A program made the position numbers and the translations under genes. Shown in pieces: positions 833 to 32,000 of a stretch of 32,000 nt of DNA (its first letter is position 1; every line of letters begins with the position of its first letter). The notes under the pieces are model-generated. The model did not search any database, was not told the DNA's origin, and saw only the letters and a program-made list of their open reading frames with translations. The stretch spans positions 1,410,001-1,442,000 of the forward strand of contig NC_002939.5 in NCBI RefSeq assembly GCF_000007985.2, read 5' to 3'. The stretch comes from Geobacter sulfurreducens PCA (lineage in GTDB: Bacteria > Desulfobacterota > Desulfuromonadia > Geobacterales > Geobacteraceae).

Positions 833-927
833 GTAATCCATGCGGTGTAAAGATCCGGCTGCAGCCGACGGGATTGTGCCGACACGGCTCCCGCTCATCA
901 GCTACGGCGACTTGCGGAGGAACTGGT

Positions 928-6923: not shown

Positions 6924-8220
6924 AGAAAACAGCCTATTTGTGGTACATTGTCGCGCATAACGCTCTACAATTATTGAGGAAAGTTATGCGCGGCTTTGAC
7001 AGCAACACAGAAGCTCTCTTTACCTATGTGACACCTGAATCCTTTGTCCCGAAGGACCACCCCTTGCGGGCCATCCGTAAAATGGCCGACGAAGCCCTGG
7101 CAGGGATGGACAAGCTCTTTGACAGCATGTACGCCACAACCGGCCGCTCCTCAATCCCACCGGAGAAGCTCTTGAAAGCCCAACTGCTGATGATCCTCTA
7201 CTCCATCCGCAGCAACCGGCAGTTGGTAGAGCAGATCCATTACAACTTCCTGTTCCGCTGGTTCCTCGGCATGGGCTTGGACGAGAAAGTCTGGGATCAT
7301 TCCAGCTTTACCAAGAACAGTGACCGATTGATTGGCTCCGAAGTTGCCGCCGAGTTTCTTTCCCGGGTTCTGGCCCAGGCAGAGCGTAAGCGACTGTTGT
7401 CCCGCGAACACTTCACCGTTGACGGAACTCTCATCGAAGCCTGGGCTTCCATCAAGAGCTTCAAGCCCAAGGATGGACCTCCTTCAGCCGGTGGTGGCGG
7501 CAGAAACGATACCGTGGATTTCAAGGGACAGAAACTTACCAACGAAACCCATGGTTCCACCACTGACCCTGATGCCCGGCTCTACCGCAAGGGGAAGAAC
7601 AAGGAAGCCAAGCTCTGCTACCAGGGACATACCCTGATGGAGAATCGTAGTGGCCTCATCATCAGGACCAAGGTGACAACGGCAACCGGTTGCGGTGAGC
7701 GCGACGCAGCAAAGGCCATGGTGCAGCAATTGCCAAGGACGACCCGACGGATCACTCTTGGCTGCGACAAAGGCTACGACACAGAATCATTCGTCAAAGA
7801 GCTGCGTAGGCTAAAGATAACGCCACACGTGGCCCAGAACACCTCCAACAGGAAATCGGCCATCGACGGCAGAACCACCAAGCATCCGAACTACACCATC
7901 AGCCAGAAGATCAGGAAACGAATCGAAGAAGGCTTTGGCTGGATGAAGACCGTGGGCAGCTTACGCAAGACGATGTACCGGGGAATCGAGAAGATCGCCA
8001 TGCAACTTGATCTGCACGCTGCGGCCTACAACCTGGTTCGGATGAAAAACCTGGGTCTCGGTGTCACCTGAGAGGGGAAAACCAGGCTACATCAGCAGTA
8101 TATGAGGTTGATAAAGAGCAAAAAGAACGAGAAACAAAGGTTCTGAGCAACAAAACTGATTCAAAAAAAAACGAACTGCAAAGTTCAGCAAGTCAAATGG
8201 GGCCGATTTTCAACAGCCTG
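6902..8220 (+). mobile_element. IS5-family insertion sequence, 1319 bp, apparently intact
   Basis: 13-bp perfect terminal inverted repeats, a 4-bp direct repeat TTAG (fits the IS5 YTAR target) and a single DDE transposase ORF. GC content is visibly lower than in the flanks. Confidence 0.88.
6986..8071 (+). CDS. IS5-family DDE transposase
   Basis: GAGG at 6976-6979, then ATG 6986 (MRGFDSNTEALF...). The track start at 6938 is non-ATG. InsH/DUF772-type N-terminus (NFLFRWFLGMGLDEKVWDHSSFTKN). DDE_Tnp_1-type C-terminus with CDKGYD and R-x3-E-x6-K (RKRIEEGFGWMK). Confidence 0.9.
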   Translation: MRGFDSNTEALFTYVTPESFVPKDHPLRAIRKMADEALAGMDKLFDSMYATTGRSSIPPEKLLKAQLLMILYSIRSNRQLVEQIHYNFLFRWFLGMGLDEKVWDHSSFTKNSDRLIGSEVAAEFLSRVLAQAERKRLLSREHFTVDGTLIEAWASIKSFKPKDGPPSAGGGGRNDTVDFKGQKLTNETHGSTTDPDARLYRKGKNKEAKLCYQGHTLMENRSGLIIRTKVTTATGCGERDAAKAMVQQLPRTTRRITLGCDKGYDTESFVKELRRLKITPHVAQNTSNRKSAIDGRTTKHPNYTISQKIRKRIEEGFGWMKTVGSLRKTMYRGIEKIAMQLDLHAAAYNLVRMKNLGLGVT

Positions 8221-8224
8221 TTAG
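8208..8224. repeat. IS right inverted repeat (8208-8220) plus target-site duplication TTAG (8221-8224)
   Basis: See the left-end feature; these are its reverse-complement and direct-repeat partners. Confidence 0.85.
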
Positions 8225-8288
8225 GAAGCCCTTTGCCCTGGACGCCCTGAGAGAGCACATAGGCAAGGCCATGCTCGCCGGCACCTGA
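8225..8288 (+). pseudogene. Orphaned 3' end of the histidine kinase receiver domain
   Basis: Deleting 6902-8224 joins ...DADARLL to RKPFALDALREHIGKAMLAGT, with a stop at 8286-8288, in the frame of the 4743 ORF. KPF is the conserved receiver beta5 lysine motif. Confidence 0.85.
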
Positions 8289-8441
8289 CAGCCTTTCCTC
8301 TCACATAATCCCCCATTCATATCTGCGGTCCTCATTACTGAGCCTCTTCATCTTCCGCGCCCCTCTCGTCATGCTTACCATTTATCTGGTGTAGATAAAA
8401 AGACCGTAATGAACCGATGTAGGGAATTGGGAGGCAGGTTG

Positions 8442-8483
8442 TCAGGGATTTCCCTATATTCCTGTAAACGGTTTTCCCGATAG
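8442..8483 (+). promoter_or_regulatory. Putative MCP promoter: TCAGGGATTTCCCTA element plus CCCGATAG -10-like box
   Basis: Element at 8442-8456. CCGATA at 8477-8482, exactly 35 nt after the element start. Half-site AGGGAATT at 8421-8428. It lies 62 nt upstream of the ATG at 8545. Confidence 0.5.
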
Positions 8484-8544
8484 GTATACACAGAGCAGGC
8501 AAAGTTCATGTGCTGATAAGTTACGCCAAGCAAAGGAGGATAAT

Positions 8545-10251
8545 ATGACGTGGTTCCACAATTTAAAAATTGCATCTAAGCTGATAGTTGGTTTTGCTCT
8601 TGTTACCCTGATAGCTTGTGTTATAGGAGCTATTGGGATAACAAAAATAATGCAGATAGAAAAAGCCGATACAGAGATGTATGAGCTAAATGCAAAGCCA
8701 ATGGGACCTATCCTGACTACAGCTGTGGCTTTTCAGAGGATCAGGGTCAACTATCGTGAGATAGCACTGGAACAGACTAATGAAGGCAAGGTAAAGTTTT
8801 CCAACAGAATTAAAGAGTTGCAAAAGACAATAGATGACAATTTGCCCGAAATAGAAAAGTCTCTGAAGTCGGAAGAGACTAAGAAAGCCTACGCAGATAT
8901 AAAGGCAGAGTTGGCTAAGTTTGCCCCTCATCTTGACAAGATTGTGGCCCTGGCCATGGATGGGAAGAATGACCAGGCAGTGGCCTATATGAGGAGTGAC
9001 TCCGTGGCCGGGATCGCCCGGTCCGTGGACGACTCGATTCAGAAACTCGCTGACCTGAAAATTGATCTGGCCAAGAAGAAATCCGACGCCAATACCGCCG
9101 CCGCCAAGGCTGCGGTGGCGATGACGGGCATCATCCTCGTGCTCGGTGTTGCCCTGGCGGTCGGACTCGGCATATTCCTTTCCCGCATCATCAGCCGCCC
9201 GCTCAGATCGGCCGTGGACGTTTCGAACCGCCTGTCGGAAGGAGACCTGACCGTAACGATCGAAGCGACGAGCAAGGACGAGACGGGTCAGCTGCTTGCG
9301 GCGATGCACAACATGGTAGAGAAGCTGAAGGGCGTGGTAGCTGACGTGAAGAGCGCGGCAGACAACGTTGCCGCTGGCAGCCAGGAGCTCTCCTCCAGCT
9401 CCGAGGAGATGAGCCAGGGAGCCACCGAGCAGGCGGCCGCGGCCGAAGAGGCCTCCAGCTCCATGGAGCAGATGAGCTCCAACATCCGGCAGAACGCTGA
9501 CAACGCCACCCAGACCGAGAAGATCGCCCTGAAGAGCGCCGCCGATGCCAAGCAGGGCGGCACGGCCGTGGCAGAAACCGTCGTGGCCATGAAGGAAATC
9601 GCCTCCAAGATCTCGATCATCGAAGAGATAGCCCGCCAGACGAACCTGCTGGCGTTGAACGCAGCCATCGAAGCGGCGCGTGCCGGTGAGCACGGCAAAG
9701 GGTTCGCGGTGGTAGCGGCCGAGGTCAGAAAGCTTGCCGAGCGGAGCCAGAAGGCGGCGGGCGAGATCAGCGAGCTGTCTGCCTCCAGCGTTCAGGTAGC
9801 GGAAGAAGCCGGCGAGATGCTGACGCGGATCGTGCCGGACATCCAGCGTACCGCGGAATTGGTGCAGGAGATCAGCGCCGCGTGCAAGGAGCAGGACACG
9901 GGAGCGGAGCAGATCAACAAAGCTATCCAGCAGCTTGACCAGGTGATCCAGCAGAACGCCAGCGCCAGCGAAGAGATGGCGTCCACCAGCGAAGAGCTGG
10001 CCAGCCAGGCCGAACAGCTGCAGGAAACAATCGCCTTCTTCAAAACCGGCGAACAGGTGGGTTTGGTGCGCAAAGCGGCAGCAGTGCGCCAGTTCGCGGC
10101 CAAGAAAAAGGCAGCGATCCCTCATCTGGGTCACGGCACGTCCAACGGCTACCACGCCGAACCCGCGACGTCGCGGAAAGTGGCGGTGGGCGGCGGGGTA
10201 GACCTGAACCTGGACAGCGATCACCTTGACGACCAGTTCGAGAAATTCTAG
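8545..10251 (+). CDS. Methyl-accepting chemotaxis protein (4-helix-bundle-type periplasmic sensor)
   Basis: AAGGAGGA at 8533-8540, then ATG 8545. Layout is TM, about 170 aa of helical periplasmic region, TM, HAMP and the MCP signalling domain. C-terminal QFEKF. Confidence 0.95.
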
Positions 10252-10728
10252 GAGGGAGCGATGGCACACGCAGACACAACGGAAACGCGGCAGTACCTGA
10301 CCTTCACTCTTGCCGGGGAAGTCTTTGGGGTGGACGTGGCCAAGGTCCGTGAGATATTGGAATGGAGCAGCATCACCAAGGTCCCGCAGACTCCCGAATT
10401 CATGCGCGGTGTGATCAACCTGCGGGGGAGCGTGGTTCCGGTGATCGACTTGCGGCAGAAATTCGGGATGCCTGAAACGGAGCGCAGCATCAACACGTGC
10501 ATCATCGTGGTTGAGGTAGAGACGGGAGCTGAGACACTGGTGCTGGGGATGCTTGCGGACTCAGTGCAGGAGGTGTTCGAGCTGGAGGGAGTGAACATCG
10601 AGCCTGCGCCCCGGATCGGGACGAAGTTGGACACCTCGTTCCTGAAGGGAATGGGGAAGCGCGGCGATGCCTTTCTGATGATCCTGGACATCGACCGGGT
10701 ATTCGGCGGCGATGATCTGGCCGGGCTG
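9245..10728 (+). repeat. Segmental duplication copy 1 (MCP 3' half + cheW)
   Basis: Near-identical to 11866-13343. The offset is 2621 and becomes 2615 after a 6-nt indel in a divergent linker (about 10021-10090). Confidence 0.92.
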
Positions 10729-10755
10729 GCCGCGGCAGGGGAGCGGGCAGCGTAG
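10261..10755 (+). CDS. cheW: Chemotaxis coupling protein CheW
   Basis: GGAGGGAG RBS overlaps the MCP stop. 164 aa with CheW-like sequence (YLTFTLAGEVFGVDVAKVREI, INLRGSVVPVIDLRQKFG, VLGMLADSV). Confidence 0.95.
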   Translation: MAHADTTETRQYLTFTLAGEVFGVDVAKVREILEWSSITKVPQTPEFMRGVINLRGSVVPVIDLRQKFGMPETERSINTCIIVVEVETGAETLVLGMLADSVQEVFELEGVNIEPAPRIGTKLDTSFLKGMGKRGDAFLMILDIDRVFGGDDLAGLAAAGERAA

Positions 10756-10985: not shown

Positions 10986-11174
10986 ATATAATGGTGGTAA
11001 AAAATAGGCGGCAAATTTTATGGTGGTTAAAGCCGGGGTCGGTTGGGCAGGCACTACGTGTGACGAATAGAATGGTTATTGGAAAATGGTCTGACAACGG
11101 TATATATCAAATCGTTTTCAGGTCGACAGCGGTAGAAGTGCAATATGTTGCTTCACTTATCCAAGGAGGATGGT

Positions 11175-12866
11175 ATGCGTATCGGTGATCTCAAAATTGG
11201 CGTACGGCTTGGTATTGGATTTGGTGTTTTGCTCGTCCTACTGGGTGTCGTTACCGTGGTCGGCATCAATGGTATGAAGGAGATTAACTCAAAGCTGGAT
11301 CGCATTCTCAAGGTCAACTATGGGAAGATCAAGAATGCCAATGAAGTCTCTATGGTCGTTGGCGATTTGATGGGCAAGATCAATGAAATAATGCTCAAGG
11401 ACGTGAATGAGCGGCCTGCAATCAAACAGGAAATTGAAAAATTGCGGAGCGATTACCGCTCTGCCCTGGAGAGGCTTGAACAACTGGAGCAGACGGATCA
11501 GGGCAAACAATTGATCGCCGGTGCCAAATCCGCTATTGATAATGCCAAAAAGGCCAATAACGACATCATCGAGCTGAGTCTTGCCGGGAAAACCGATCAG
11601 GCTCTGATAGTTTACAACAAGGAAGGCGCCCCCCTATCGCAAAAGATCGTGACGGCATTCAAGAATATCGTGAAGTATCAGGAAGAGCGGATGGAGCTGC
11701 GCTACGCTGAAGCGCTGAAAGCCTACGGCACCTCCCGGGCCGTTGCACTCGGTGTTGCTTTCTGCGCAGCGATCATCGGCATTCTTATCAGCCTGTTTGC
11801 GACCAGGAGCATTACGCGTCCCCTCGACAAAGCCGTATCGGTATCCAATGAACTGGCAGAGGGGAACCTGACCGTAACGATCGAAGCGACGAGCAAGGAC
11901 GAGACGGGTCAGCTGCTTGCGGCGATGCACAACATGGTAGAGAAGCTGAAGGGCGTGGTAGCTGACGTGAAGAGCGCGGCGGACAACGTTGCCGCCGGCA
12001 GCCAGGAGCTCTCCTCCAGCTCCGAGGAGATGAGCCAGGGAGCCACCGAGCAGGCGGCCGCGGCCGAAGAGGCCTCCAGCTCCATGGAGCAGATGAGCTC
12101 CAACATCCGGCAGAACGCTGACAACGCCACCCAGACCGAGAAGATCGCCCTGAAGAGCGCCACGGATGCCCGCGAGGGTGGCAAGGCTGTTGCCGGCACG
12201 GTGAGTGCCATGAAGGAAATCGCCTCCAAGATCTCGATCATCGAGGAGATAGCCCGTCAGACGAACCTGCTGGCGTTGAACGCAGCCATCGAAGCGGCGC
12301 GTGCCGGTGAGCACGGCAAAGGGTTCGCGGTGGTAGCGGCCGAGGTCAGAAAGCTTGCCGAACGGAGCCAGAAGGCAGCGGGCGAGATCAGCGAGCTGTC
12401 TGCCTCCAGCGTTCAGGTAGCGGAAGAAGCCGGCGAGATGCTGACGCGAATCGTGCCGGACATCCAGCGTACCGCGGAACTGGTGCAGGAGATCAGCGCC
12501 GCGTGCAAGGAGCAGGACACGGGAGCGGAGCAGATCAACAAAGCTATCCAGCAGCTTGACCAGGTGATCCAGCAGAACGCCAGCGCCAGCGAAGAGATGG
12601 CGTCCACCAGCGAAGAGCTGGCCAGTCAGGCCGAACAGCTGCAGGCCACCATTTCATTCTTCCGGACCGATGATCGTGGCGCGTCAAGCCGGAGCGCGGT
12701 CCATCGTCCCGTTGCCAAGAAAAAGGCAGCGATCCCTCATCTGGGTCACGGCACGTCCAACGGCTACCACGCCGAACCCGCGACGTCGCGGAAAGTGGCG
12801 GTGGGCGGCGGGGTAAACCTGAACCTGGACAGCGATCACCTTGACGACCAGTTCGAGAAATTCTAG
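11175..12866 (+). CDS. Methyl-accepting chemotaxis protein (4-helix-bundle-type sensor)
   Basis: AGGAGGA at 11164-11170, then ATG 11175 ([25 protein letters not shown]). The track start at 11145 is an upstream extension. TM, helical periplasmic region, TM, HAMP and MCP signalling domain. C-terminal QFEKF. Confidence 0.94.
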
Positions 12867-13343
12867 GAGGGAGCGATGGCACACGCAGACGCAACGGAAA
12901 CGCGGCAGTACCTGACCTTCACTCTTGCCGGGGAAGTCTTTGGGGTGGACGTGGCCAAGGTCCGTGAGATATTGGAATGGAGCAGCATCACCAAGGTCCC
13001 GCAGACTCCCGAATTCATGCGCGGTGTGATCAACCTGCGGGGGAGCGTGGTTCCGGTGATCGACTTGCGGCAGAAATTCGGGATGCCTGAAACGGAGCGC
13101 AGCATCAACACGTGCATCATCGTGGTTGAGGTAGAGACGGGAGCTGAGACACTGGTGCTGGGGATGCTTGCGGACTCAGTGCAGGAGGTGTTCGAGCTGG
13201 AGGGAGTGAACATCGAGCCTGCGCCCCGGATCGGGACGAAGTTGGACACCTCGTTCCTGAAGGGAATGGGGAAGCGCGGCGATGCCTTTCTGATGATCCT
13301 GGACATCGACCGGGTCTTCGGCGGTGATGACTTGGCCGGGCTG
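11866..13343 (+). repeat. Segmental duplication copy 2 (MCP 3' half + cheW)
   Basis: Partner of 9245-10728. The first ~440 nt of the two cheW copies differ at a single base (10276 A versus 12891 G, by hand alignment). Confidence 0.92.
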
Positions 13344-13370
13344 ACGACATTGGAGCAGACGGCGGCATAG
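12876..13370 (+). CDS. cheW: Chemotaxis coupling protein CheW (second copy)
   Basis: Same RBS and spacing as copy 1. The protein is identical to copy 1 except T5A and the last ~8 residues. Confidence 0.95.
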   Translation: MAHADATETRQYLTFTLAGEVFGVDVAKVREILEWSSITKVPQTPEFMRGVINLRGSVVPVIDLRQKFGMPETERSINTCIIVVEVETGAETLVLGMLADSVQEVFELEGVNIEPAPRIGTKLDTSFLKGMGKRGDAFLMILDIDRVFGGDDLAGLTTLEQTAA

Positions 13371-16315: not shown

Positions 16316-16549
16316 GCGGGCACCTGTTCATCTCTGCGGCAGCATCGGGAAACGTGTGGGGCATAGGCAGGAAGATGTAATGATGCCGGGGCAGTTGCGG
16401 CGCGTGCTCCCGGCAGTTTATTCCCAGGTATGGTATACGCGGTTATAAAACTGCTGTTGGTTCGGCATGGCCGTTAAATCATCGTTAAAGATGGGTGGCG
16501 GGCCGTCGAAAGATATCTCTAGCACATTGTGAATGTTCGGGAGGTATGC

Positions 16550-18034
16550 ATGGGATTGCGCAACATGACTATCCGGTGGAAGCTCATTGCCATGACCGCG
16601 ATAATCGTTGTTCTGACGGCAACGGTGATCACAGCCATTTGCCTTGCGCGGTTCAAGGCCGATCTGATGAGGGTTGCCACGGTTTCCCAGGAAACGCGGC
16701 TCAAGACTCTCTGGGAACTGCTCCGTCAGAAGGGAGCCAACGCCCGGATCGACAATGGCAGGCTCATGGTCGGCGAGTACGTGGTAAACGACAACTTTGA
16801 GATTCCCGACAAGGTGAAGGATCTTTGCGGCGGGACGGCAACCATCTTCATGGGCGACCTGCGGGTTTCCACCAACGTCAAGAAGGAGGACGGCAGCCGC
16901 GCCATCGGCACAAAGCTCCAGGGGCCCGCCTATGATACAATTTTCAAGCAAGGGAAACCTTACCGCGGCGAAGCGAATATTCTCGGCGTTCCCTACTTTA
17001 CGTCCTATGATCCGCTCCGGGATGCGAGCGGTGCGATCATCGGCGTGCTGTACGTCGGCGTAAAGAAAAGTGAGTTCTTCGAATCTTACGATCGCCTCAA
17101 GCTGATCATCGTCGGCAGCGCAGTGGGCACGGTTCTGCTGGCGTGTCTTGTGGCCGGGTTCGTGTCGGGACGGCTCGTGCGCCCGCTGCGCGACGCAGTT
17201 GCCACCGTAGACCGGCTGGCCACGGGCGATCTTTCCGTTGCCGTTGAAGCAAAGGGGACGGATGAGATCGGTCGCCTGCTTGCCGCCATGGGCAATATGG
17301 TGAGCAAGCTCAGGGAGGTAGTCACCAGTGTCAAGTCTGCTTCGGACAACGTGGCCGCCGGTGCCCGCGAGCTGTCCGTAAGCGCCGAGGAGATGAGCGA
17401 GGGGGCCACCGAGCAGGCGGCAGCGGCAGAGCAGGCGTCCGGCAACATGGAGGAGATGAGCGGTTCTATCAGACACACTGCCGATAATGCGGTCCAGACC
17501 GAGAAAATTGCCGGCAAGAGCGCCGCGGATGCCCGCGAGGGAGGGGAGGCGGTTGCCGAGACCGTATCGGCCATGAAGGTTATCGCCGGCAAGATCGCGA
17601 TCATTGAAGAGATCGCCCGCCAGACGAATCTGCTGGCCCTGAACGCGGCCATCGAGGCGGCCCGGGCCGGCGAGCACGGCAAGGGGTTCGCGGTGGTGGC
17701 CTCCGAGGTGCGCAAGCTGGCCGAACGGAGTCAGAAAGCTGCGGGAGAGATCGGTGAGTTGTCCGCATCCAGCGTGCGAATCGCGGAGAAGGCTGGAGAG
17801 ATGCTTGCCCGCATGATTCCCGATATTCAGCGGACCGCAGAACTGGTGCAGGAGATCAGCGCGGCGTGCAAGGAGCAGGATTCCGGCGCGGACCAGATTA
17901 ACAGGGCCATCCAGCAACTGGACAACGTGATCCAGCAGAACGCCTCCACCAGCGAGGAAATGGCGTCCACCAGCGAAGAACTGGCGAGTCAGGCCGAACA
18001 GCTCCAGGCAACCATAGCCTTTTTTAACATCTGA
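16550..18034 (+). CDS. Methyl-accepting chemotaxis protein with a single-Cache-type sensor
   Basis: GGGAGG at 16539-16544, then ATG 16550 ([22 protein letters not shown]). Cache-like stretch [30 protein letters not shown]...[32 protein letters not shown] and MCP domain follow. Ends ATIAFFNI, with no C-terminal tail or pentapeptide. Confidence 0.92.
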
Positions 18035-18088: not shown

Positions 18089-18270
18089 ATTATCTGTAAG
18101 TGTCAGTTTGTCGTGTTGTTAGACCAATTGTTTTAGTTGGTGGGCCTTTGTTTTAAAAAAACTCCTCAAGGTTTTACTGGGTAAACCGATACACGCAATA
18201 GTTGGAGTGAAATAAGGTTTTTCGGAGATGAGTCCGGGAAAACCCTGAGTAACTGGAAGGAGAGGTGTCA

Positions 18271-19971
18271 ATGAGCTGGAAGAACCTGAAGCTGAGTCTC
18301 AAGGTGCTTGCGGGCATCGGTAGTGTCCTTGTGTTGCTGGCGGTCATCGGCGTCTGGGCGGTGAACGGCCTGTCAAAGGTTGTCAGGGACGGCCACGAGG
18401 TAAGCGAAGGGAACAAACTGCGGGCCGAGCTCCTCCAACGGGAGGTGGATCACCTCAACTGGGCCAAGAACGTCAGCACGTTCCTGCTGGATGGCAAGGT
18501 CAGGGAGCTCACCGTTCAGGTGGATCACACCAAGTGCAAGTTCGGCGAGTGGTACTACGGCGAGGGACGCAAGCAGGCCGAGGCCATGCTTCCCGCGCTG
18601 AAGGACGAACTGGCTGCCATCGAGGAACCCCACCGCAAGCTCCACGAGTCGGCAGGGCTCATCAAGAAGGCCTACAACAAAGAGCAGGGTGAGCAGGGCC
18701 GCAAGGACGCGGAGATCATCTTCGCGAGTCAGACCCAGCCGAACCTGCAGCTGGTGCAGAAGCACCTGGCCGGGCTAAATGAGACATCCCGCAAGAATAT
18801 CCTCTCCGATGAACAGATGATCGCCAACGCCAACAGCACCAAGACCGCCGTGATCGCCCTGAGCATTGCCGCCCTGGTAATCGGCGTTGTTCTGGCACTG
18901 CTCATCTCCCGTTCCATCAGCATTCCGGTCCTGAAGGGGGTTGAATTCGCCCTGAAGATAGCTGACGGCGACCTGCGGAGCACCCTCGACATTGATCGGA
19001 AGGACGAGGTGGGGCAGTTGGTGGCGGCCCTCAACGACATGGTTGCCAAGCTCCGTGACATTGTAACCGATGTGAAGAACTCGGCCGATAACGTTGCTGC
19101 CGGCAGCCAGGAGCTCTCCTCCAGCTCCGAGGTCATGAGTCAGGGAGCCACCGAGCAGGCAGCCGCGGCCGAAGAGGCCTCCAGCTCCATGGAGCAGATG
19201 GCGGCCAATATCCGGCAGAACGCGGACAACGCCTCTCAGACTGAGAAGATCGCCCTGAAGAGCGCCACTGATGCCCGCGAGGGTGGCAAGGCTGTTGCCG
19301 GCACGGTGAGTGCCATGAAGGAAATCGCCTCCAAGATCTCGATCATCGAGGAGATAGCCCGTCAGACGAACCTGCTGGCGTTGAACGCAGCCATCGAAGC
19401 GGCGCGTGCCGGTGAGCACGGCAAAGGGTTCGCAGTGGTAGCGGCCGAGGTCAGAAAGCTTGCCGAACGGAGCCAGAAGGCAGCGGGCGAGATCAGCGAA
19501 CTGTCTGCCTCCAGCGTTCAGGTAGCGGAAGAGGCCGGCGAGATGCTGGCGCGGATGGTGCCGGATATCCAGCGTACCGCGGAACTGGTGCAGGAGATCA
19601 GTGCCGCGTGCAAGGAGCAGGACTCGGGAGCGGAGCAGATCAACAAGGCGATCCAGCAGCTTGACCAAGTGATCCAGCAGAACGCCAGCGCCAGCGAAGA
19701 GATGGCGTCCACCAGCGAAGAGCTGGCCGGGCAGGCGGAGCATCTCCAGTCGACCATCACATTTTTCAAAACCGACGAGCAGGGGCGGGCTGCCGGGAGA
19801 TCTCCGGCCGTGCGTCCGGCCGCGGTGGCGAAGAAGCCCGCTGCGTTGCGCCTGGGCCACGGCAACGAACGCCGGACGGAGCCTGTCGCGCCGCGAAAGG
19901 CTGTAGCCGGCAAGGGCGTGGACCTGAAGATGGACGGCGACTACCTGGATGACCAGTTCGAAAAGTTCTAG
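18271..19971 (+). CDS. Methyl-accepting chemotaxis protein with a CZB-type (zinc-binding) motif in the inter-TM region
   Basis: GGAAGGAGAGG RBS, then ATG 18271 (MSWKNLKL...); the track start at 18265 is a GTG. HLNW-x24-CKFGEW-x26-HRKLH (18451-18645) fits the CZB pattern. TM, HAMP and MCP domain are present. C-terminal QFEKF. Confidence 0.92.
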
Positions 19972-24523: not shown

Positions 24524-25753
24524 ATGGCGATCCCACAAATTCCCTTGTTCAGGTGGCCGAAACGTCGGCTGTTCACCCTTGCAGCCCTGCTTGTGGTGGT
24601 GTTTGCTGCCGTCACGTCGCTGCGGTTCCGCTATTATGGGCACTGGCAGGGAATTTACATCCTCAGGGGGGTGGACGGCCATTACCTGGTAAAGGATGAC
24701 CTGCTGCTCGGCGACGAGAACGCTCTTCTCCTCGCCCTGCCGGCCGAGCCAGTGTTCCGTTTTCTCAATGGCAATGTGAGCCACGCCACCGGGGGGCCGC
24801 GTCTTGAATACGAGTGGTTCCGCCGTGACGGGAGCGGGTTCGTCCGGAGCTTTGCCGCCGACGGCACGGAGTATCTTACCTGTCTCAGCAGGTATCTGGA
24901 CAGCGGTGGGAAGGAGAGCCGGGGGCTGTTCGTGGGAGGCGGACTGCCCTTCGACCTGGAAAGGGACCGCCGGCAGAGCATGAACGAAACCGGGATGGCG
25001 TTTTTCGACGGCGCGTCCTGGCATCACATCTGGTGCAACGTCAACGAGGCCATCTCGCCGTGGAGCAATCCGGCCGCGGTGATGCCACCTTCAGCCTGGA
25101 AATACCGGGGGAGCCGCGTTTTGGAATCGACGCCCCGGCGGCTCGTTCTCGGCAGCAGCCACTGGTTCGAGCTTGACGGCGTACCGGTGTCCATGGACCG
25201 TTTCATGATCTTCAGGGCCGGTACCCGCTATGTGACCCTCGTGATCCGGATGACCAACATCGGCACGCAGCCCACGGGTTACTTCTATGTCTATGGCGAC
25301 GAACCATGGGTGGGGAACTACGGATCTGCCGAGGGTAACGTGGGCTGGGTTGTCGACGGCCTCGTTCCCTATGAGGGGTCCCTCGACCTGAAACGCCACA
25401 GTTGGGCCGGCTATGTGGACTATGGCAACGAAGCGGCCGGCGAGACGCATGACCGCAACGGTTTGGCCAATTTCATCGAGTGGCAGGGCCCCGTCACGCC
25501 GGATACGGTCTACTTCTCCAACAGGATCGGCACCTTTGCCAATGTTTCCGCCCGGGTGCCCCTCTCCCATCCGCAGAACCGGGTCATCGTCCTCCAGTGG
25601 GGGCCCCGCCTCCTGGCGCCGGGGCAGTCGGACATCTTTGTGCTTTCCATCGGCATGGCGGACCGGGAGCCGAACACCGGCTTCCCGCTCAAGCCCGATA
25701 CCTCCTTCGATCTTGCCTCATTCCAGCAGTTTCTGGCAACCCAGGGTTTCTGA
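24524..25753 (+). CDS. Hypothetical membrane-anchored protein, no recognisable domain
   Basis: 409-aa ORF with GC-rich, coding-like composition. N-terminal TM LFTLAALLVVVFAAVTSL. I recognise no family motifs. Confidence 0.7.
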   Translation: MAIPQIPLFRWPKRRLFTLAALLVVVFAAVTSLRFRYYGHWQGIYILRGVDGHYLVKDDLLLGDENALLLALPAEPVFRFLNGNVSHATGGPRLEYEWFRRDGSGFVRSFAADGTEYLTCLSRYLDSGGKESRGLFVGGGLPFDLERDRRQSMNETGMAFFDGASWHHIWCNVNEAISPWSNPAAVMPPSAWKYRGSRVLESTPRRLVLGSSHWFELDGVPVSMDRFMIFRAGTRYVTLVIRMTNIGTQPTGYFYVYGDEPWVGNYGSAEGNVGWVVDGLVPYEGSLDLKRHSWAGYVDYGNEAAGETHDRNGLANFIEWQGPVTPDTVYFSNRIGTFANVSARVPLSHPQNRVIVLQWGPRLLAPGQSDIFVLSIGMADREPNTGFPLKPDTSFDLASFQQFLATQGF

Positions 25754-25793: not shown

Positions 25794-26894
25794 TTACTTT
25801 TGAAAGCTCCGCACGAACCGGCGATCGATCAGGTCTTTGAGGAGCCAGGGGAGCGTGCCGTGCCGGACGATCTTTCCCCGGACCAGCACTCCGGTGCCGT
25901 CACCCAGGTTCAGTATCTGGAGAAAGCGCTTCTGAGGCTTGAAGGGGGCAAGGGGGCACCCGCCAAGGTACGCCCGGAGGTTGGCGTGGAGAAGCGGTCC
26001 CTGGCGGACCGCATAGACCCCCACCCGCGCCAGGGGAGCACCTTCGAAGGCGATGCAGTCGCCGCCGCCGAATACTGACGCCGAGCCCGTCGACTGGAGG
26101 AAGCGGTTGACGCTCAGGGAGCCGTCCGGGGCCAGGGGAAGCCCCAGGCTTTCGAGGAGGAGAGGCGGTTTCACGCCGGTGGAAATCAGGGCGACGTCGA
26201 ATGGGATCCGGCGGCCGTCGGCAAGGATGGCCGTACCGTCTGTCCAGCCGGAAACGGGAGCGTCTTCGATCATTCGGATTCCGCGCCGGTCGAAGGAGGC
26301 GCGGACCAACTCACGGGTCAGGGGAGGGAAGGGTGCGAGCAGGGGGCCGGCACTGGCAATGGTGACGCTGCCCCGATCGCCCAGCAGCCGGCGGCCGTTG
26401 CCGGCAATCTCCACACCGGCCGCGCCGCCGCCCACCACCAGAAGTCGGGGAGGCGCGGTGCAGCCCGCTTCCCGCAGCCGTTCCACTGCCCGGGCCAGAT
26501 TGGCGATGGGTTTGACCGGGTAGACGCCGGGCAGGGCGGGGACCAGCCCGGCCACTATCGATCCGGCGTTAAGGGAGAGGGCATCGTAGGCCAGCTCTCT
26601 GCCGTCGGTGAGCCGGAGCAGCCTGCAGTCCGGATCGAGCCCCGCTGCCTCGCCGATCACGCACCGCCCGCCGCCCGATTCCGCCAGCCGCTGCACGTCG
26701 ATGCGAACCTGCTCTTCCGTGTAGAGCCCCCCGAGCATTCCCGGCCCCATGCCCGAATAGTAGTGATGGCGGGCCGGGGTGACGAGGGTGACGGCGATGC
26801 CCGCTCCGGTAAGCTCCCGGAGGCGCCGGAGGGTATGGAGATGGGCATGCCCTCCGCCTACCAGTATCAGGTGCCGGGCGGCGCGGCCGTTCAT
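25794..26894 (-). CDS. FAD-dependent pyridine nucleotide-disulfide oxidoreductase (NDH-2-like)
   Basis: [17 protein letters not shown] and [15 protein letters not shown] dinucleotide folds, plus GGGDCIAF. Its ATG overlaps the pgi stop (ATGA at 26891-26894). Confidence 0.85.
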
Positions 26895-28480
26895 CGGGCG
26901 GAAAAGCGGCTCCGGGTAAGAGGGGATGCCGCTTCCATGACGACACCGTGGTCCGGGTTGGCGGCGGCGTGCAGGAGGCTTCTGAATATCGTTTCCGCCT
27001 CTTCCGGCCTGCCCAGTGCCGCGGCGATCTCCGTGGCGGAAAGGGTGCCCCCTTCCCGTCGCAGGAATGCCAGTGCCTCGCCCGTGAGGGCCAGGACGCC
27101 GCCTGCCGCCTTTTTCCCCGCCTCCACGCCGGGCTGGTGGTAGGCGTTGATGTTGACCAGGGAGGCATAGAGCCCCACGGCCCGCTCGAAGAGGGCCACC
27201 AGGACACCCACCGTGCGTGGGGTTATGGCGGGAATGGTGATGGTGAGTGACTCGCGTCCCTTTTCGCTCAGGGCGGTGCGGGTCCCCTGAAGGAAGCCGG
27301 ACAGGTAGTCGCCGCTGGTGAAGCCCGGCTCAACCGCCAGGGAGGCCCCCTCGCGATCCTTCAGCACCTCGATGAAAGCGACGAAGAAGTTGTTGGTCCC
27401 CTCACGCAACTGCTGCACGTAGGCGTGCTGATCCGTGGAGCCCTTGTTGCCGTAGACCGTGAGCCCCTGGTTCACCACGGTGCCGTCCAGATCCAGCTCC
27501 TTGCCGATGGATTCCATGATGAGTTGCTGGAGGTAGCGGGAGAAGAGGAGCAGGCGATCCTTGTAGGGGAGCACCACCATGTCGCGGGAGCCGCTGCCCC
27601 GGGTGGCGTGATGCCACATGAGGGCCAGGAGGGCCGCCGGATTGCGGAGCGTCTCGCGCCGGCGAGTCAGTGTGTCGCAGGTCCGGGCGCCATCGAGGAA
27701 GTCTCTGATGGGGATTCCCTGGAGCGCGGCCGGCAGGAGTCCCACGGCCGAGGTCTCCGAGGTGCGGCCGCCGACCCAGTCCCACATGGGGAAGCGGCAC
27801 AGCCAGCCGCCGGCCTCGGCGGTCCGGTCCAGCTCGCTGCCGGCGCCGGTGACTGCCACGGCATGACGGGAAAAGTCGAGCCCGGCACGCCGGTAGGCCG
27901 CCTCCGCCTCAAGCATGCCGTTCCTCGTTTCCTTGGTGCCGCCGCTCTTGGAGATGACGATGGCAAGGGTTTCCGCCAGCCCATCCGCTCCGAGGGTCTC
28001 AAGTACCCGGTCCATGCCGTCAGGGTCGGTGTTGTCGAAGAAGAAGGGCCGCATCCGGTCGCCGTGGCCGCCCAGGGCATCTGCCACGAACTGTGGCCCC
28101 AAGGCTGAGCCGCCGATGCCGATCACCAGGACGTTGCGGAAGAGGCGGGCTCGGGGCGCCGTCACCACCCCGTTATGGACATCAGCGGCAAAGGCCGTTA
28201 CACGATCAACAGTCTCCCTGATGGCGGCGGCGATAGCGGGGTCGGGGGCCAGTTCGGGACTTCTGAGCCAATAGTGCCCCACCATCCGGTTTTCGTCCGG
28301 ATTTGCGATCTCACCCGCCTCCAGCCGTTCCATGGCGTCGAAGGCGCGCTGCATGGCCGGCTCCATGGAGGCGAAGAAATCATCGCTGAAGGCCATTCTG
28401 CTGACATCAAGGATGAGTCCCGTGTCCGCGTCGAAAAGAAGATAGGTCTGGTAGCGTTGCCACAGTTCATGGGCGTTCAT
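26891..28480 (-). CDS. pgi: Glucose-6-phosphate isomerase
   Basis: GGAGGAG RBS, then the ATG at 28480 ([11 protein letters not shown]...). The track start at 28570 is an extension across the upstream gene tail. PGI signatures [14 protein letters not shown] and [14 protein letters not shown]. Confidence 0.93.
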
Positions 28481-28496
28481 TGGACTCCTCCGGTCT

Positions 28497-29504
28497 TCAT
28501 GGTGTTCCGGGCCCCTCCGGGGCTCCGATGGCGCCGCCTCAGGTGAAACCGGAACCGGCGGTGCAGGCATAACAGTAATCGTCAGTGGGGATCAGGGTTC
28601 CTTCCGGGGGGAGGCAGGCCATGTCGGCCACGTGACGCCGCTCTCCCCCGAGCCCCCGGCCGGCGGCCAGGTTGAAGTCGCAGTCGTAGAGATGTCCGTC
28701 CCAGGCCACGGAGACCAGAGCGCGGCACATGAGGCCGGGCACCGTGGCCGGATTGAAGTTTCCGGCCAGCCGCTGCAGATATCCCTCCAGGTTGCCCGAG
28801 TCCTCCAGCCAGCGGCGGAAGCGCCCCAAAGGGACGTTGGCAAAGGTGTAGAGGTGCGAGAAGACCACCCCGTACTTGCGTTCCAGGTCCCGGCGGAGCT
28901 TCTGTTCTGCCTCGCACTGGGAGGGGGGAAGGAACGCGCCGGTCGGATTGGCCACCAGGTCCAGTTCCAGGCCGCTCCCGTCGCGGCCGTAGCCGAGATC
29001 GTTCAGGAGTTTCAGGGCCGTGATGCTCCTCTCCATGATGCCGTGGCCGCGCTGGGCCTCGGCCTGGCCGACGTTGGCCGAGGGGAACGATGCAACAATG
29101 GCGGCGCCCGCAGACCTGAGCAGCTCGGGCAGGTGCGCCACGCCGGGGTTCAGGAACGCCGAGAGGTTCGTCCGGATGATAAGCCGGGGCGTCAGCGGCG
29201 CCAGCCCGGTCACCAGCCGCTCGATGCCGGGGACGAGCTCCGGAGCGCCGCCGGTGATGTCGATGGCCTGAAACCGGCATCGGGAGGCGTAGGCGATGAC
29301 CTCCTCCATGGTTTCCGGCGTCATGATCTCGGTCCGGGATGGTCCCGCCTCCAGGTGGCAATGGCGGCAGGCCAGGTCGCACAGGAACCCCACGTTTACC
29401 TGGAGGGTGGTGGTCCGATCCCGGCGAAGCTCCAGCCCGCACCGCTCCAGGGCGCGGGAGAACGCCTCGATGCAGGGGGAGGATTGCGCAAGGGATTCCG
29501 TCAT
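28497..29504 (-). CDS. arsS: ArsS-type radical SAM/Cys-rich protein, probable selenoprotein (TGA at 28539-28541 read as Sec)
   Basis: Radical [11 protein letters not shown] (CxxxCxxC). C-terminus [30 protein letters not shown], then TGA at 28497-28499. The first TGA falls where the family motif CxxCTAGxGxxCxG has Cys. Confidence 0.7.
28508..28527 (-). other. SECIS-like hairpin 11 nt downstream of the in-frame UGA
   Basis: mRNA CGG-A-GCCCC GGA GGGGC-CCG: an 8-bp GC stem with one bulged A and a G-rich apical loop that starts 20 nt after the UGA. Confidence 0.5.
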
Positions 29505-29515
29505 GGTCCGGTCGG

Positions 29516-29848
29516 CTACAGCGACAGCTTCTCGGCGATTTTACGCATCTGCACCCCGTGGACCAGGGCCGCGCCGCCCCTGATGGCGTTGGCCACGTGG
29601 ACCGCTTCGGTCATCTCGCCCAGATTCGATCCCTTCTCCAGGCAGGCCCGGGTATAGGCGTCGATGCAGTAGGGGCACTGGACCGCGTGGGCAACGGCCA
29701 GGGCGATGAGGGTCTTTTCCCGCTCGGTCAGCTCTCCCTCGGCGAACACTGCGCCGTAGTAATCAAAGAACTTCTTGGCCAAGTCCGGCGCATCCTTGCC
29801 GATGTCGCCGAACTTCGCCAGATCGTCGGGTACATAGTACGAGTCCAT
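29516..29848 (-). CDS. AhpD/carboxymuconolactone-decarboxylase-like protein (arsenosugar-associated peroxidase-like type)
   Basis: AAGGAGAA RBS, then the ATG at 29848 (MDSYYVPDDLAKF...). CPYC redox motif. 110 aa. The start overlaps the TVP38 stop by 1 nt (TGATG). Confidence 0.85.
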   Translation of the reverse strand: MDSYYVPDDLAKFGDIGKDAPDLAKKFFDYYGAVFAEGELTEREKTLIALAVAHAVQCPYCIDAYTRACLEKGSNLGEMTEAVHVANAIRGGAALVHGVQMRKIAEKLSL

Positions 29849-30528
29849 CAGGTTCTCCTTTGAGCGGTAATTTTCTTGTACAGAACCGGCACCAGCGAAA
29901 AGAGCCCCAGCAGGGCAAAGGAACCGATCACCCGCGGCGAGGCGATGTCCGCGGGGCTCGCGATGGCGGCCAGACTGGCGCCGGCATTGACGTAGACGAA
30001 ACCGCCCGGGATGATCCCCACGAAGGTCCCGAGCACGAAAGTGCGCAGGGGAAGCCGCGTCAGACCCGCCCCCAGGTTGATCAGGAAGAAGGGAAACAGG
30101 GGGACGAGCCGCAGAAAGAGCAGATAGTTGAGTCCGGCCTTTTCCAGTTCCCGGTTGATCCCCTCCAGCCTGGGGCCGAAGCGACGCTGGACCGCATCGT
30201 GAAAGAGGTAACGGGTAAGCAGGAAGGCCAGCGTCGCCCCGATGGTGGCGCCGGTCACCGCCCAGGCAGTCCCTGCCACGGCCCCGAACAGGGCGCCGGC
30301 GGCAAGGGAAAGGATCGTGGCCCCCGGCAGCGACAGGGCGGTCTGGATGATGTAGATCGCCAGGAAAACGGCAACCGTCAGGGTGCGGTGTTCCCCGTAA
30401 AAGGCCAGCAGTGCCCCATGATTGGCTTTGAGCGAGGCAAAGGTCAGCAGCCGTCCCAGGTCCAGGATGAAGAACAGGGCGACCAGTGCGACACAGAAGG
30501 AGATGACGATAATTCGTTGTGCGTTCAT
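29848..30528 (-). CDS. TVP38/TMEM64 (DedA-related) family membrane protein
   Basis: 226 aa and polytopic. Family-typical LSLPGATILSLAAGALFG and LRLVPLFPFFLINLGAGLT. Confidence 0.88.
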   Translation of the reverse strand: MNAQRIIVISFCVALVALFFILDLGRLLTFASLKANHGALLAFYGEHRTLTVAVFLAIYIIQTALSLPGATILSLAAGALFGAVAGTAWAVTGATIGATLAFLLTRYLFHDAVQRRFGPRLEGINRELEKAGLNYLLFLRLVPLFPFFLINLGAGLTRLPLRTFVLGTFVGIIPGGFVYVNAGASLAAIASPADIASPRVIGSFALLGLFSLVPVLYKKITAQRRT

Positions 30529-30616
30529 GAACGATGGTTATATACCAGGCCGGGAGCGGAGGCAATCGGCTATAGGAATATATTCATATTTTCCATGATT
30601 CGCACGTAGTTCATGG

Positions 30617-32000
30617 CTAGCGCCACAGCCGGCGCAGGGTCAGCATGATCCCCATCAGCCGCTTCACCCCGGGGGTGAGGCGGGTCCGGTTCCAGGCATC
30701 GGCCAGCTTCTTGATCGCTTCGGCCTGAGTGGGGTAGGGGTGGATGCTGCGGCCGATGGCGGAAAGGCCCAATCCGGCGGACATGGCCAGGGTCAGCTCG
30801 TTCAGCATCTCGCCGGCGTGGCGGGCCACGATGGTGGCGCCGACGATCCGGTCGGTGCCCCGCTTCAGGTGCACCCGGGCGAAACCCTCGTCTTCCCCGT
30901 CAAGCAGAGCCCGGTCGACCTCGGTCAGGGGGACGGTCAGGGTGTCCACGGCAAGACCGCGCTCCCCGGCCTCCCGTTCGTAGAGGCCCACGTGGGCAAC
31001 CTCCGGGTCGGTGTAGGTGCACCAGGGAATGATCTGGGTAGAGAACCGCTGCCGGGCGCCGAAGAGGGCGTTGGCGACGACGATGCGCGCCATGGCGTCT
31101 GCGGCGTGGGTGAATCGGTAGGGGGAGCAGATGTCGCCGGCGGCGTAGACTCGCGGATTGTCGGTCCGGAGCCGGTCGTTGACCCTGACCCCTCGGAGCG
31201 GATCGGCGACAATGCCCGCCCGCTCCAGTCCCAGCCCTTCGATGTTCGGCGTTCGCCCGGCCCCCACCAGGATCTCGTCAGCCGTCACCTCATGGGATTG
31301 ATCCCCCTGCCGGACGATGAGCGTCCGGGCTCCGCTCCGCCGTTCCACCCCGACGACAGCTGCCGCCGTCAGGAACGATACCCTGTCCCGCTCCAGGGCG
31401 TGCCGCACCAGGGCCGCGGCGTCGGTGTCCTCCCGCGGCAGGATCTCCGGGGCGGCCTCGATCACCGTCACGCTGCTGCCGAGCCGTGCCGCGGCCTGGG
31501 CCAGCTCGCAGCCGATGGGGCCGCCGCCGATGACGGCCAGTCGCGCCGGAAGCGTTGCGAGGGAAAAAATCGTCTCGTTGGTGAGGTACCCCGCTTCCGC
31601 CAGCCCCGGGACCGGAGGGGCTGCGGCCCGGGCACCGGTGCAGACGGCGGCATGAACGAAATTCAGGCGCCGTCCGTCCACCTCCAGGGCGTTCCGGCTG
31701 ATGAAGCTACCCTGGCCGAAGAAGACGTGGACCCCCAGGTCACGAAAGCGCACTGCCGCGTCGTGACGGCCGATTTCCGCCCGCAGGCGGCGCATCCGCT
31801 CCATGACGGCCGCACCGTCGACGCCGGTCCCGTGGCACCCCGTCACGCCGAAGGGGGCGCCGTTCCCGGCATCGTGAGCGGCCCGCGCGGCGCGGATGAG
31901 GGCCTTGGATGGGACGCAGCCGTAGTTGAGACAGTCGCCCCCCAGCCGGTGGCGCTCCACCAGCGCGACACGCGCACCGAGCCCTGCTGCGCCTGCCGCG
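30617..32000 (-). CDS. Mercuric-reductase/dihydrolipoamide-dehydrogenase-like disulfide oxidoreductase, 5' end off window
   Basis: The frame stays open to base 32000 (...AAGAAGLGARVALVERHRLGGDCLNYGCVPSK). Redox-active CxxxxC, a second Rossmann fold LAVIGGGPIGCE and a C-terminal dimerisation domain. Confidence 0.9.
   Translation of the reverse strand, partial: AAGAAGLGARVALVERHRLGGDCLNYGCVPSKALIRAARAAHDAGNGAPFGVTGCHGTGVDGAAVMERMRRLRAEIGRHDAAVRFRDLGVHVFFGQGSFISRNALEVDGRRLNFVHAAVCTGARAAAPPVPGLAEAGYLTNETIFSLATLPARLAVIGGGPIGCELAQAAARLGSSVTVIEAAPEILPREDTDAAALVRHALERDRVSFLTAAAVVGVERRSGARTLIVRQGDQSHEVTADEILVGAGRTPNIEGLGLERAGIVADPLRGVRVNDRLRTDNPRVYAAGDICSPYRFTHAADAMARIVVANALFGARQRFSTQIIPWCTYTDPEVAHVGLYEREAGERGLAVDTLTVPLTEVDRALLDGEDEGFARVHLKRGTDRIVGATIVARHAGEMLNELTLAMSAGLGLSAIGRSIHPYPTQAEAIKKLADAWNRTRLTPGVKRLMGIMLTLRRLWR

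Follow-up and report, generated by a model that had tools for sequence, protein, structure and literature searches.

Which of the genes packed around the arsS gene of Geobacter sulfurreducens PCA take part in a common pathway, and is this pathway the known route to arsenosugars? The question arises from a 32,000-nucleotide (nt) stretch of the chromosome (NC_002939.5, positions 1,410,001 to 1,442,000; the whole stretch is called the window here, and coordinates are counted from its first nucleotide). In this window a first-pass annotation had read six minus-strand genes as one tightly coupled redox operon devoted to an uncharacterised metalloid or sugar-radical chemistry. In the direction of transcription, these genes encode a MerA/Lpd-like flavoprotein disulfide reductase, a TVP38/TMEM64 membrane protein, a small AhpD-like protein, the radical S-adenosylmethionine (SAM) enzyme ArsS, glucose-6-phosphate isomerase (pgi) and a flavoprotein resembling type II NADH dehydrogenases (NDH-2). 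The results presented below suggest, with a probability of roughly one in two, that the cluster is the Geobacter version of a module in which ArsS and its AhpD-like partner adenosylate an organoarsenical, and that it combines recurrent accessory genes with lineage-confined passengers. This reading draws on profile scores of ArsS, its AhpD-like partner, the reductase (at subfamily level) and Pgi that exceed the respective cutoffs, and on the recurrence of the reductase and TVP38 with ArsS in independent arrangements in Desulfobacterales, in Geobacteraceae including G. pickeringii, and in Marinobacterium.

No enzyme other than ArsS is known to form the bond between arsenic and ribose in arsenosugars and arsenolipids, and work on it has so far come from an oxygenic cyanobacterium in which ArsM is encoded next to it. 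The locus described here draws attention to a separate subfamily of ArsS in anaerobic metal and sulfate reducers, which mostly contains selenocysteine (Sec), has no adjacent ArsM and is found recurrently with TVP38 and the reductase.

ArsS and its AhpD-like partner

Genes were assigned from the list of open reading frames (ORFs) and by direct reading of the minus strand, protein families by profile searches against NCBIfam and Pfam, and sequence outside the window was taken from the matching G. sulfurreducens locus L003. The arsS gene (28497..29504, minus strand; plain ORF 28539-29504) specifies a radical SAM selenoprotein of 335 amino acids (aa) including Sec. The 321-aa part that precedes Sec scored 365.9 bits with the equivalog profile TIGR04167 (cutoff 300), and the Cys-rich C-terminal domain DUF3641 was recognized by PF12345 with 149.8 bits. 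The radical SAM motif CDLACRHC occupies residues 42-49, and the cysteines C260, C275, C311 and C314 are invariant. Sec is specified by codon 322 (TGA 28539-28541) directly after a CxxCTAG motif, and read-through adds 13 residues. The TGA aligns with a Cys codon of homologues, many of which end in the databases with ...GSGFT while others go on with ...GSGFTCGGSI..., and the record of G. sulfurreducens KN400 calls the gene with 335 aa.

A hairpin resembling a selenocysteine insertion sequence (SECIS) is located 15-34 nt 3' of the UGA (28508..28527, minus strand; CGG-A-GCCCC, GGA loop, GGGGC-CCG). Hairpins of 5-9 bp, located about 15-35 nt after the UGA, were present in 17/17 distinct TGA-type arsS genes, and their stems differ among the loci (ACCUG/CAGGU, GCCCC/GGGGC, GGCCU/AGGCC and others). 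When the sequences were folded one by one with Cys-type genes as control, the mean minimum free energy of the post-UGA segment was -10.0 kcal/mol for the 17 TGA-type genes versus -4.3 kcal/mol for 64 Cys-type genes (Mann-Whitney p=3.6e-7). Alignment of the 45 nt after the UGA with MAFFT followed by RNAalifold yielded no consensus structure, because the loop lengths differ and the 3' arms are out of register. The alignment of the TGA with Cys and the hairpin downstream of it thus bear out the earlier assignment of Sec to this protein. A 2026 review (PMC13188914) also includes in its list a radical SAM selenoprotein of TIGR04167 that has the motif GxxU.

Directly upstream of arsS, the gene at 29516..29848 (minus strand) encodes an AhpD-like protein of 110 aa with a CPYC motif, which scored 202.8 bits with TIGR04169 (cutoff 120), the family of the 'arsenosugar biosynthesis-associated peroxidase-like protein'. 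The reaction of ArsS has been described as reductive cleavage of SAM and transfer of the 5'-deoxyadenosyl radical to dimethylarsenite, DMAs(III), which yields 5'-deoxy-5'-dimethylarsinoyl-adenosine (DDMAA) in a redox-neutral manner (PMC13598754); adenosylation of DMAs(III) by ArsS in vitro is credited to Cheng et al. 2021, as cited in PMC12159101. The characterised Synechocystis enzyme (Cheng et al. 2021), the only ArsS for which this activity is known, and the ArsS protein of the window have in common the equivalog-level TIGR04167 score, the CxxxCxxC motif, DUF3641 and an AhpD-like partner encoded upstream. The window protein for its part belongs to a distinct subfamily that is about 42% identical to the 'GSSCGG' type and is distinguished by a CTAGxGFT-U/C-GG tail, usually with Sec, and by an ArsM gene that is never adjacent.

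No solved structure of ArsS was found by sequence match. A model of the full-length Cys-type homologue P0008 (predicted local distance difference test, pLDDT, 80.6) combines an incomplete TIM barrel with a C-terminal domain, the nearest solved folds of which are radical SAM enzymes of the SPASM/twitch type, namely SuiB, SkfB, EpeE, BlsE, PqqE, anSME, BtrN and MoaA, at a modest template modelling (TM) score of about 0.5. Confidence is low for the last 12 residues of the model, among them the Cys that corresponds to Sec.

Two subfamilies of ArsS with different gene neighbourhoods

The gene context of ArsS was surveyed in 80 loci from different species, the 80 with the highest scores among at least 600 matches; this sample does not include cyanobacteria. 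The loci were scored both by tblastn with the proteins of the window and by unbiased clustering of ORFs annotated with NCBIfam. An AhpD-like gene is located directly upstream of arsS in 54/80 loci, followed in frequency by an ArsM-like methyltransferase (22/80), the 'arsenosugar' glycosyltransferases TIGR04282 (17/80) and TIGR04283 (13/80), the MerA/Lpd-like reductase (12/80), TVP38 (9/80) and DUF547 proteins (5/80). NF004991 was the best profile for all four survey reductases tested, one of which exceeded its cutoff. An NDH-2-like gene was encountered in a single locus, 4 kb off and on the opposite strand, and pgi in none of the 80.

The ArsS sequences fall into two clean groups that match the C-terminal motif. 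The GFT group ('CTAGxGFT-U/C-GG') consists of proteins from Desulfobacterota, includes that of the window and mostly contains Sec accompanied by a SECIS-like hairpin; the GSS group ('CTAGxGSSCGG') comprises all other sequences of the sample. Members of one group share about 55% identity, whereas across the two groups the value is about 42%. The groups also differ in their neighbours: ArsM is adjacent in 0/19 GFT loci versus 22/61 GSS loci (Fisher p=0.001), the reductase in 8/19 versus 4/61 (p=7e-4) and TVP38 in 8/19 versus 2/61 (p=9e-5), although many loci, those of the GFT group among them, are phylogenetically related, so that these p-values overstate independence.

The order of the accessory genes varies. 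It is reductase-AhpD-ArsS-(DUF547)-TVP38 in Desulfobacterales and reductase-TVP38-(AhpD)-ArsS in Geobacteraceae, and G. pickeringii carries TetR-CMD-reductase-TVP38-ArsS at another chromosomal site, beside mobile-element genes. In Marinobacterium arenosum, a 745-aa fusion of TVP38 and the reductase follows directly after ArsS. The same accessories stand beside ArsM or the glycosyltransferases TIGR04282/TIGR04283 in other phyla (L058, L065, L039, L021 and L025).

A tblastn search with eight ArsM-like queries (E<1e-5) detected no ArsM-like gene in the 32-kb window, in agreement with the first-pass annotation, nor in the +/-10 kb flanks in G. sulfurreducens; an arsM just past base 32000, which had been named as an observation that would speak against the annotation, is thereby excluded from these flanks. 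For the other two arsenosugar cluster genes, TIGR04282 and TIGR04283, the window and the flanks likewise gave no tblastn hit at this threshold.

In the Geobacteraceae loci L092 (4425-5381) and L095 (4415-5371), an ArsS of the other subfamily (42-44% identical, with a GSSC tail) and no AhpD-like gene are found, and this ArsS is flanked by orthologous TVP38 (72-74% identical) and pgi (74-75%) genes. It looks as if one ArsS subfamily had been replaced in place by the other between TVP38 and pgi. The shared slot between TVP38 and pgi, together with the occurrence of the accessories beside ArsM and glycosyltransferases elsewhere, argues that both subfamilies do the same job, with the reductase and TVP38 as its accessories and not as signs of a different chemistry. 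The earlier proposal that the locus departs from the textbook pathway is accordingly only partly retained: the ArsS subfamily of the window indeed never adjoins ArsM, but the same accessories occur beside ArsM and glycosyltransferases, and the subfamilies interchange.

Further neighbours were noticed in the survey. Four Desulfobacterales loci (L007, L009, L017 and L020) contain genes for a lipoyl-domain E2 acyltransferase and a true dihydrolipoyl dehydrogenase beside reductase-AhpD-ArsS, which may merely reflect the relatedness of these genomes. A fatty-acid-hydroxylase-type membrane protein is encoded in L026, L028, L058 and L069; its weak OlsE-like match of 72 bits is far below the cutoff, and its presence hints at lipid-linked products.

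The disulfide reductase and the TVP38 membrane protein

The reductase gene (30617..32000, minus strand) extends 134 nt past the end of the window, which holds the 3' 1384 nt and lacks the first 45 codons; the full protein deduced from L003 has 505 aa. The partial product contains the redox disulfide motif CLNYGC and scored 733 bits with NF004991, a profile for FAD-containing oxidoreductases (cutoff 620). Two better known assignments were rejected. With TIGR02053 (MerA) the score of 368.9 bits remained below the cutoff of 454.45, and the protein lacks both the C-terminal Cys pair and the N-terminal metal-binding domain of MerA: its C-terminus ...TLRRLWR is free of Cys and no GMTCxxC is present at the N-terminus. 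With TIGR01350 (Lpd) 331.5 bits were obtained versus an equivalog cutoff of 408.8. The nearest solved structures are those of MerA and Lpd, with a MerA as top match, and homologues are named MerA by NCBI. What the window reductase has in common with MerA is the fold and the CxxxxC redox disulfide; it is set apart by the two missing elements and the sub-cutoff score.

The TVP38 gene (29848..30528, minus strand) encodes a membrane protein of 226 aa of the DedA superfamily, the VTT domain of which scored 100 bits with PF09335; several complete genomes of the species (e.g. CP002031.1) encode exactly the same protein, and the window maps onto these loci as its reverse complement. Among the 150 best representative TVP38 homologues, 13 have a length of at least 590 aa, and all six tested are fusions of VTT with Pyr_redox_2 and Pyr_redox_dim; two other long representatives tested (541 and 486 aa) are fusions of VTT with DUF547. 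Fusion with a reductase is the commonest fusion of the COG0398 subfamily of DedA proteins, which have been proposed to be phospholipid scramblases (Todor et al. 2023, PMC10127716). The statement in the first-pass annotation that disulfide reductase-TVP38 pairs or fusions recur elsewhere is thus confirmed by the homologues, by Marinobacterium and by this previous description. The window contains the unfused pair, the closest TVP38 relatives of which include many fusions; unlike the fusions, the two genes are parted by a spacer with a predicted promoter. Moreover, the fusions were linked in PMC10127716 to aerobic metabolism and given no function, whereas the pair of the window occurs in a strict anaerobe beside ArsS. 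Most TVP38 homologues and many reductase homologues do not adjoin ArsS. DUF547 proteins were observed in the ArsS loci L007, L009, L016, L040 and L072 and fused to TVP38 in P0381 and P0460; they thus appear to be linked with TVP38 and the reductase in a single set.

Junctions and putative promoters of the cluster

All six genes were recovered on the minus strand in the order and at the coordinates annotated before, and the four junctions that had been quoted proved exact. The TVP38 stop codon and the AhpD-like start codon overlap by 1 nt (TGATG at 29848), a gap of 11 nt (29505-29515) lies between the AhpD-like gene and arsS, a gap of 16 nt (28481-28496) separates the read-through stop codon of arsS (28497-28499) from the ATG of pgi at 28480, and the pgi stop codon and the start codon of the NDH-2-like gene overlap in ATGA (26891-26894). 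The 16-nt gap, which includes the pgi ribosome-binding site GGAGGAG, presupposes that TGA 28539-28541 is decoded as Sec and that TGA 28497-28499 serves as the stop codon. The fifth junction, which the annotation had left unmentioned, is formed by an AT-rich spacer of 88 nt between the reductase and TVP38 (30529..30616, minus strand) and is not tight. The tight unit consequently comprises five genes, i.e. TVP38, AhpD-like, ArsS(Sec), pgi and NDH-2-like, which are joined by junctions of at most 16 nt; the label 'tightly coupled' applies to these and not to the reductase, which is 88 nt away with a conserved promoter-like site in between.

This site consists of TTGCCT (30560-30565) and TATAAC (30537-30542) at a distance of 17 nt and ends 8 nt before the ATG of TVP38. 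A motif TTGCnn-N16-17-TATAA, 6-8 nt before the TVP38 ATG, is present in the window and in L087, L089, L092 and L095, the spacers being otherwise diverged, and none of these five Geobacteraceae spacers has a Shine-Dalgarno sequence before TVP38. L087, a locus free of the reductase gene, has in the upstream region next to TVP38 a sequence about 90% identical to the 88-nt spacer. Judged from the sequence, the motif resembles a promoter from which TVP38 would be transcribed with no leader or almost none. A second conserved site, TTGCAT-N16-TACAAT, is located upstream of the reductase gene, which is probably transcribed separately from it. The promoter-like site before TVP38 was read from aligned spacers; a consensus promoter and terminator scanner called neither site and no other minus-strand promoter in the region. 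Just upstream of the TVP38 site, a 20-nt near-palindrome, GGAAAATATGAATATATTCC, was observed at 30575-30594 (minus strand); it is kept in L087, not in L089, and could be an operator for some regulator.

Beyond base 32000, the remainder of the reductase gene is followed by a same-strand gene for a response regulator with a GAF domain and then by a polyprenyl synthase gene in divergent orientation. Searches of the window with Rfam at gathering thresholds and for tRNAs gave no matches, and no publication on GSU1310-GSU1315 turned up in full-text searches of the literature.

pgi and the NDH-2-like flavoprotein in Geobacteraceae

The pgi gene (26891..28480, minus strand; 529 aa) scored 836.4 bits with the equivalog NF010696 (cutoff 671), with residues 1-522 covered. 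The NDH-2/FSP1-like FAD flavoprotein (25794..26894, minus strand; 366 aa) has TIGR03169 'Nterm_to_SelD' as its best match, at 269.4 bits and thus below the cutoff of 310, followed by 154 bits with the SelD-related fusion family TIGR04369; no CxxxxC redox-active Cys pair is present in its sequence. Its nearest solved relatives are the NDH-2 YjlD (2e-22) and AIFM2/FSP1. The likeness to a domain fused to SelD, mentioned in the first-pass annotation, is therefore reflected in the two best matches, but does not extend to membership in TIGR03169. The protein shares with that family and the type II NADH dehydrogenases the GGGHAH start of FAD binding, the best profile and the nearest structures; it differs from TIGR03169 in its sub-cutoff score, in being neither fused to nor near SelD, and in accompanying both Cys- and Sec-type ArsS. 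A Sec-specific role of the flavoprotein was rejected, since the gene is kept beside the Cys-type ArsS of L092, L094 and L095.

The cluster of G. sulfurreducens is embedded in a frame that is conserved among Geobacteraceae and runs from the polyprenyl synthase gene through a variable cluster to an ORF of 407-418 aa, DUF1450, ferritin and APH. Within this frame, G. sulfurreducens has RR-GAF (the response-regulator/GAF gene), reductase, TVP38, AhpD, ArsS(U), pgi and NDH-2-like. The close relatives L087 and L088, with ArsS proteins 86-87% identical, have the same genes minus the reductase, and L089 has RR-GAF, TVP38, AhpD and ArsS(U) only. L092 contains TVP38, an ArsS of the GSS type (42-44% identical), pgi and NDH-2-like, L094 contains RR-GAF, three other genes, AhpD, an ArsS with GFT-C, pgi and NDH-2-like, and L095 contains RR-GAF, reductase, TVP38, an ArsS of the GSS type, pgi and NDH-2-like. 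The six-gene neighbourhood, the conservation of which had been put forward as a touchstone by the annotation, is accordingly not conserved as such: its exact order occurs only in G. sulfurreducens, and ArsS alone is constant among the frame variants.

The pair of pgi and NDH-2-like follows ArsS in 5/6 frame variants, which rules out that it is unique to G. sulfurreducens. It adjoins ArsS only in Geobacteraceae with common flanking synteny and is missing in the syntenic L089 and in G. pickeringii (L096), and homologues of the flavoprotein at 48-50% identity sit in unrelated contexts. Since the unrelated flanks (ferritin, DUF1450 and APH) are equally syntenic, the pair represents one inherited arrangement and not independent functional evidence. 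The two genes look like lineage-confined passengers, and a misleading lead is removed with the recognition that they are not general partners of ArsS.

Two further observations concern this region. Ribosomes that insert Sec would terminate 16 nt before the pgi start, over its ribosome-binding site, and those halting at the arsS UGA would terminate 58 nt upstream of pgi (28481-28541); as a speculation, read-through at the Sec codon might in principle be needed for pgi to be translated. On the plus strand, a 409-aa ORF (24524-25753) without a Pfam match converges on the cluster, and its counterparts of 407-418 aa occupy the corresponding position in every syntenic Geobacteraceae locus.

A putative arsenical-adenosylating module and competing explanations

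In the organoarsenical module considered here, ArsS would cleave SAM reductively and join the 5'-deoxyadenosyl group to a trivalent arsenical. From the modelled fold, we infer that the flexible C-terminal tail with Sec322 (Sec or Cys) may capture the soft metalloid substrate, and that, by analogy with SPASM/twitch enzymes, an auxiliary Fe-S cluster is probably bound by the four invariant cysteines of the C-terminal region. A small reducing relay, for which the mycobacterial relay from Lpd to AhpD is a precedent, could consist of the AhpD-like protein with its CPYC motif and the NAD(P)H-dependent CxxxxC reductase; it might maintain the arsenical, the Sec/Cys tail or thiols of partner proteins in the reduced state. 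TVP38, a frequent fusion partner of this reductase from a DedA branch for which phospholipid scrambling has been proposed, may handle a membrane or lipid step. Pgi would act as an ordinary glycolytic and gluconeogenic enzyme, co-transcribed with the NDH-2-like gene and, like it, outside the chemistry, and the methylated arsenical would be supplied by an unlinked ArsM or by the environment. The window resembles the mycobacterial Lpd-(DlaT)-AhpD-AhpC relay in pairing an Lpd-type flavoprotein with a small CxxC protein of the AhpD fold, to which the four Desulfobacterales loci add the lipoyl E2 and the true Lpd; it differs in that the unit is without an AhpC peroxiredoxin and in that the AhpD-like protein belongs to a separate family, TIGR04169, dedicated to ArsS neighbourhoods.

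Several observations weigh against this organoarsenical module. The reductase is missing in the close relatives L087 and L089 and the AhpD-like protein in L092 and L095, so that neither gene is obligatory. No ArsM is encoded nearby, and none adjoins ArsS in the 19 GFT loci. The reductase, the AhpD-like protein and TVP38 are tied to ArsS by gene context, in part among related loci, and the TVP38 promoter is a prediction from aligned spacers. Finally, pgi and the NDH-2-like gene adjoin ArsS in five Geobacteraceae lineages despite the differing ArsS subfamily, which might reflect a functional tie. The last point would fit the six-gene pathway of the first-pass annotation, in which all genes serve one uncharacterised metalloid or sugar-radical chemistry; Pgi might then give or convert a sugar phosphate and the NDH-2-like protein provide electrons. 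This pathway would also account for the tight junctions, including the ATGA that couples pgi to the flavoprotein gene, and for the persistence of ArsS-pgi-NDH-2-like where not only the ArsS subfamily but also AhpD-like, TVP38 and reductase genes vary. The lineages in question, however, share their flanking synteny and thus a single inherited arrangement, the pair is all but absent from ArsS loci of other species (pgi 0/80, NDH-2-like 1/80) and missing in L089 and G. pickeringii, NDH-2-like homologues elsewhere sit in unrelated contexts, and pgi scores as an ordinary equivalog. As the two genes are neighbours of ArsS only under shared synteny and the reductase is set apart by its spacer, a single six-gene pathway is not upheld and we regard it as quite unlikely. 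A selenium-centred function, in which the SelD-domain-like flavoprotein reduces or delivers selenium for the Sec of ArsS or ArsS adenosylates a selenium nucleophile, appears very improbable. It would fit the selenoprotein nature of ArsS, the flavoprotein's best NCBIfam matches TIGR03169 and TIGR04369, and a link of a DedA protein to selenite resistance, for which a reference is listed in PMC10127716; but TIGR03169 gives 269 bits against a cutoff of 310, the flavoprotein stands beside Cys-type ArsS in L092, L094 and L095, where no Sec is needed, and it does not accompany the Sec-type ArsS of L089 or that of 15 loci from other Desulfobacterota.

The remaining explanations concern the accessories. 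The reductase and the AhpD-like protein might constitute a membrane NAD(P)H peroxidase or disulfide reductase with TVP38 in defence against thiol or peroxide stress, ArsS being a co-located client or unrelated. The mycobacterial Lpd-AhpD relay is a general precedent for this idea, the AhpD-like family is named 'peroxidase-like', redoxin, DsbD_TM and glyoxalase genes are located a few kb upstream, and a reductase homologue is found beside MsrA in L097. It is rendered unlikely by TIGR04169 members lying immediately upstream of ArsS in 54/80 loci from many phyla and by the recurrence of the reductase and TVP38 with ArsS in several gene orders. The latter recurrence, in differing orders and phyla and including one fusion, also speaks against the view that no functional link exists past the ArsS/AhpD-like pair and that the rest is due to chance operon packing and vertical inheritance, as does the enrichment of the reductase and TVP38 beside GFT-type ArsS. 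This view, to which we assign a small probability, is in keeping with the variable gene content among close relatives and with the many TVP38 and reductase homologues away from ArsS. A more far-reaching possibility is that GFT-U ArsS together with TVP38, the reductase and DUF547 forms an ArsM-independent pathway, in which a soft nucleophile other than dimethylarsenite is adenosylated and a membrane-associated product is translocated by TVP38. Inorganic or thiol-bound arsenite or selenium species may be such nucleophiles. We put this forward as a tentative and rather improbable proposal; if true, it would provide the first functional handle on bacterial TVP38-reductase fusions.

Some components of the organoarsenical module have been described already, namely Sec in this ArsS family, the ArsS/AhpD-like pair (in NCBIfam names) and the TVP38-reductase fusions. 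The literature searched contains neither the split of ArsS into subfamilies, one of which is a mostly Sec-containing, ArsM-unlinked subfamily of Desulfobacterota, nor the enrichment of TVP38, reductase and DUF547 beside GFT-type ArsS, nor the conserved promoter-like site before TVP38. The main value of these findings is that a link between ArsS and the TVP38-reductase pair becomes directly testable in the genetically tractable G. sulfurreducens.

Other features of the window

An insertion sequence-type DDE transposase (DUF772 and DDE_Tnp_1) is encoded at 6938-8071 on the plus strand, and in the adjoining stretch 8001-9000 the G+C content drops to 45% compared with about 60% elsewhere. The plus strand also carries a dense run of chemoreceptor genes (874-3816, 8545-10755, 11145-13370, 16529-18034 and 18265-19971). 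Within this run, 164-aa ORFs come after each of two 4HB-MCP genes that resemble one another, and the first of these ORFs encodes CheW; the run also contains a 980-aa MCP with repeated HAMP domains, and hybrid histidine kinase genes are interleaved with it.

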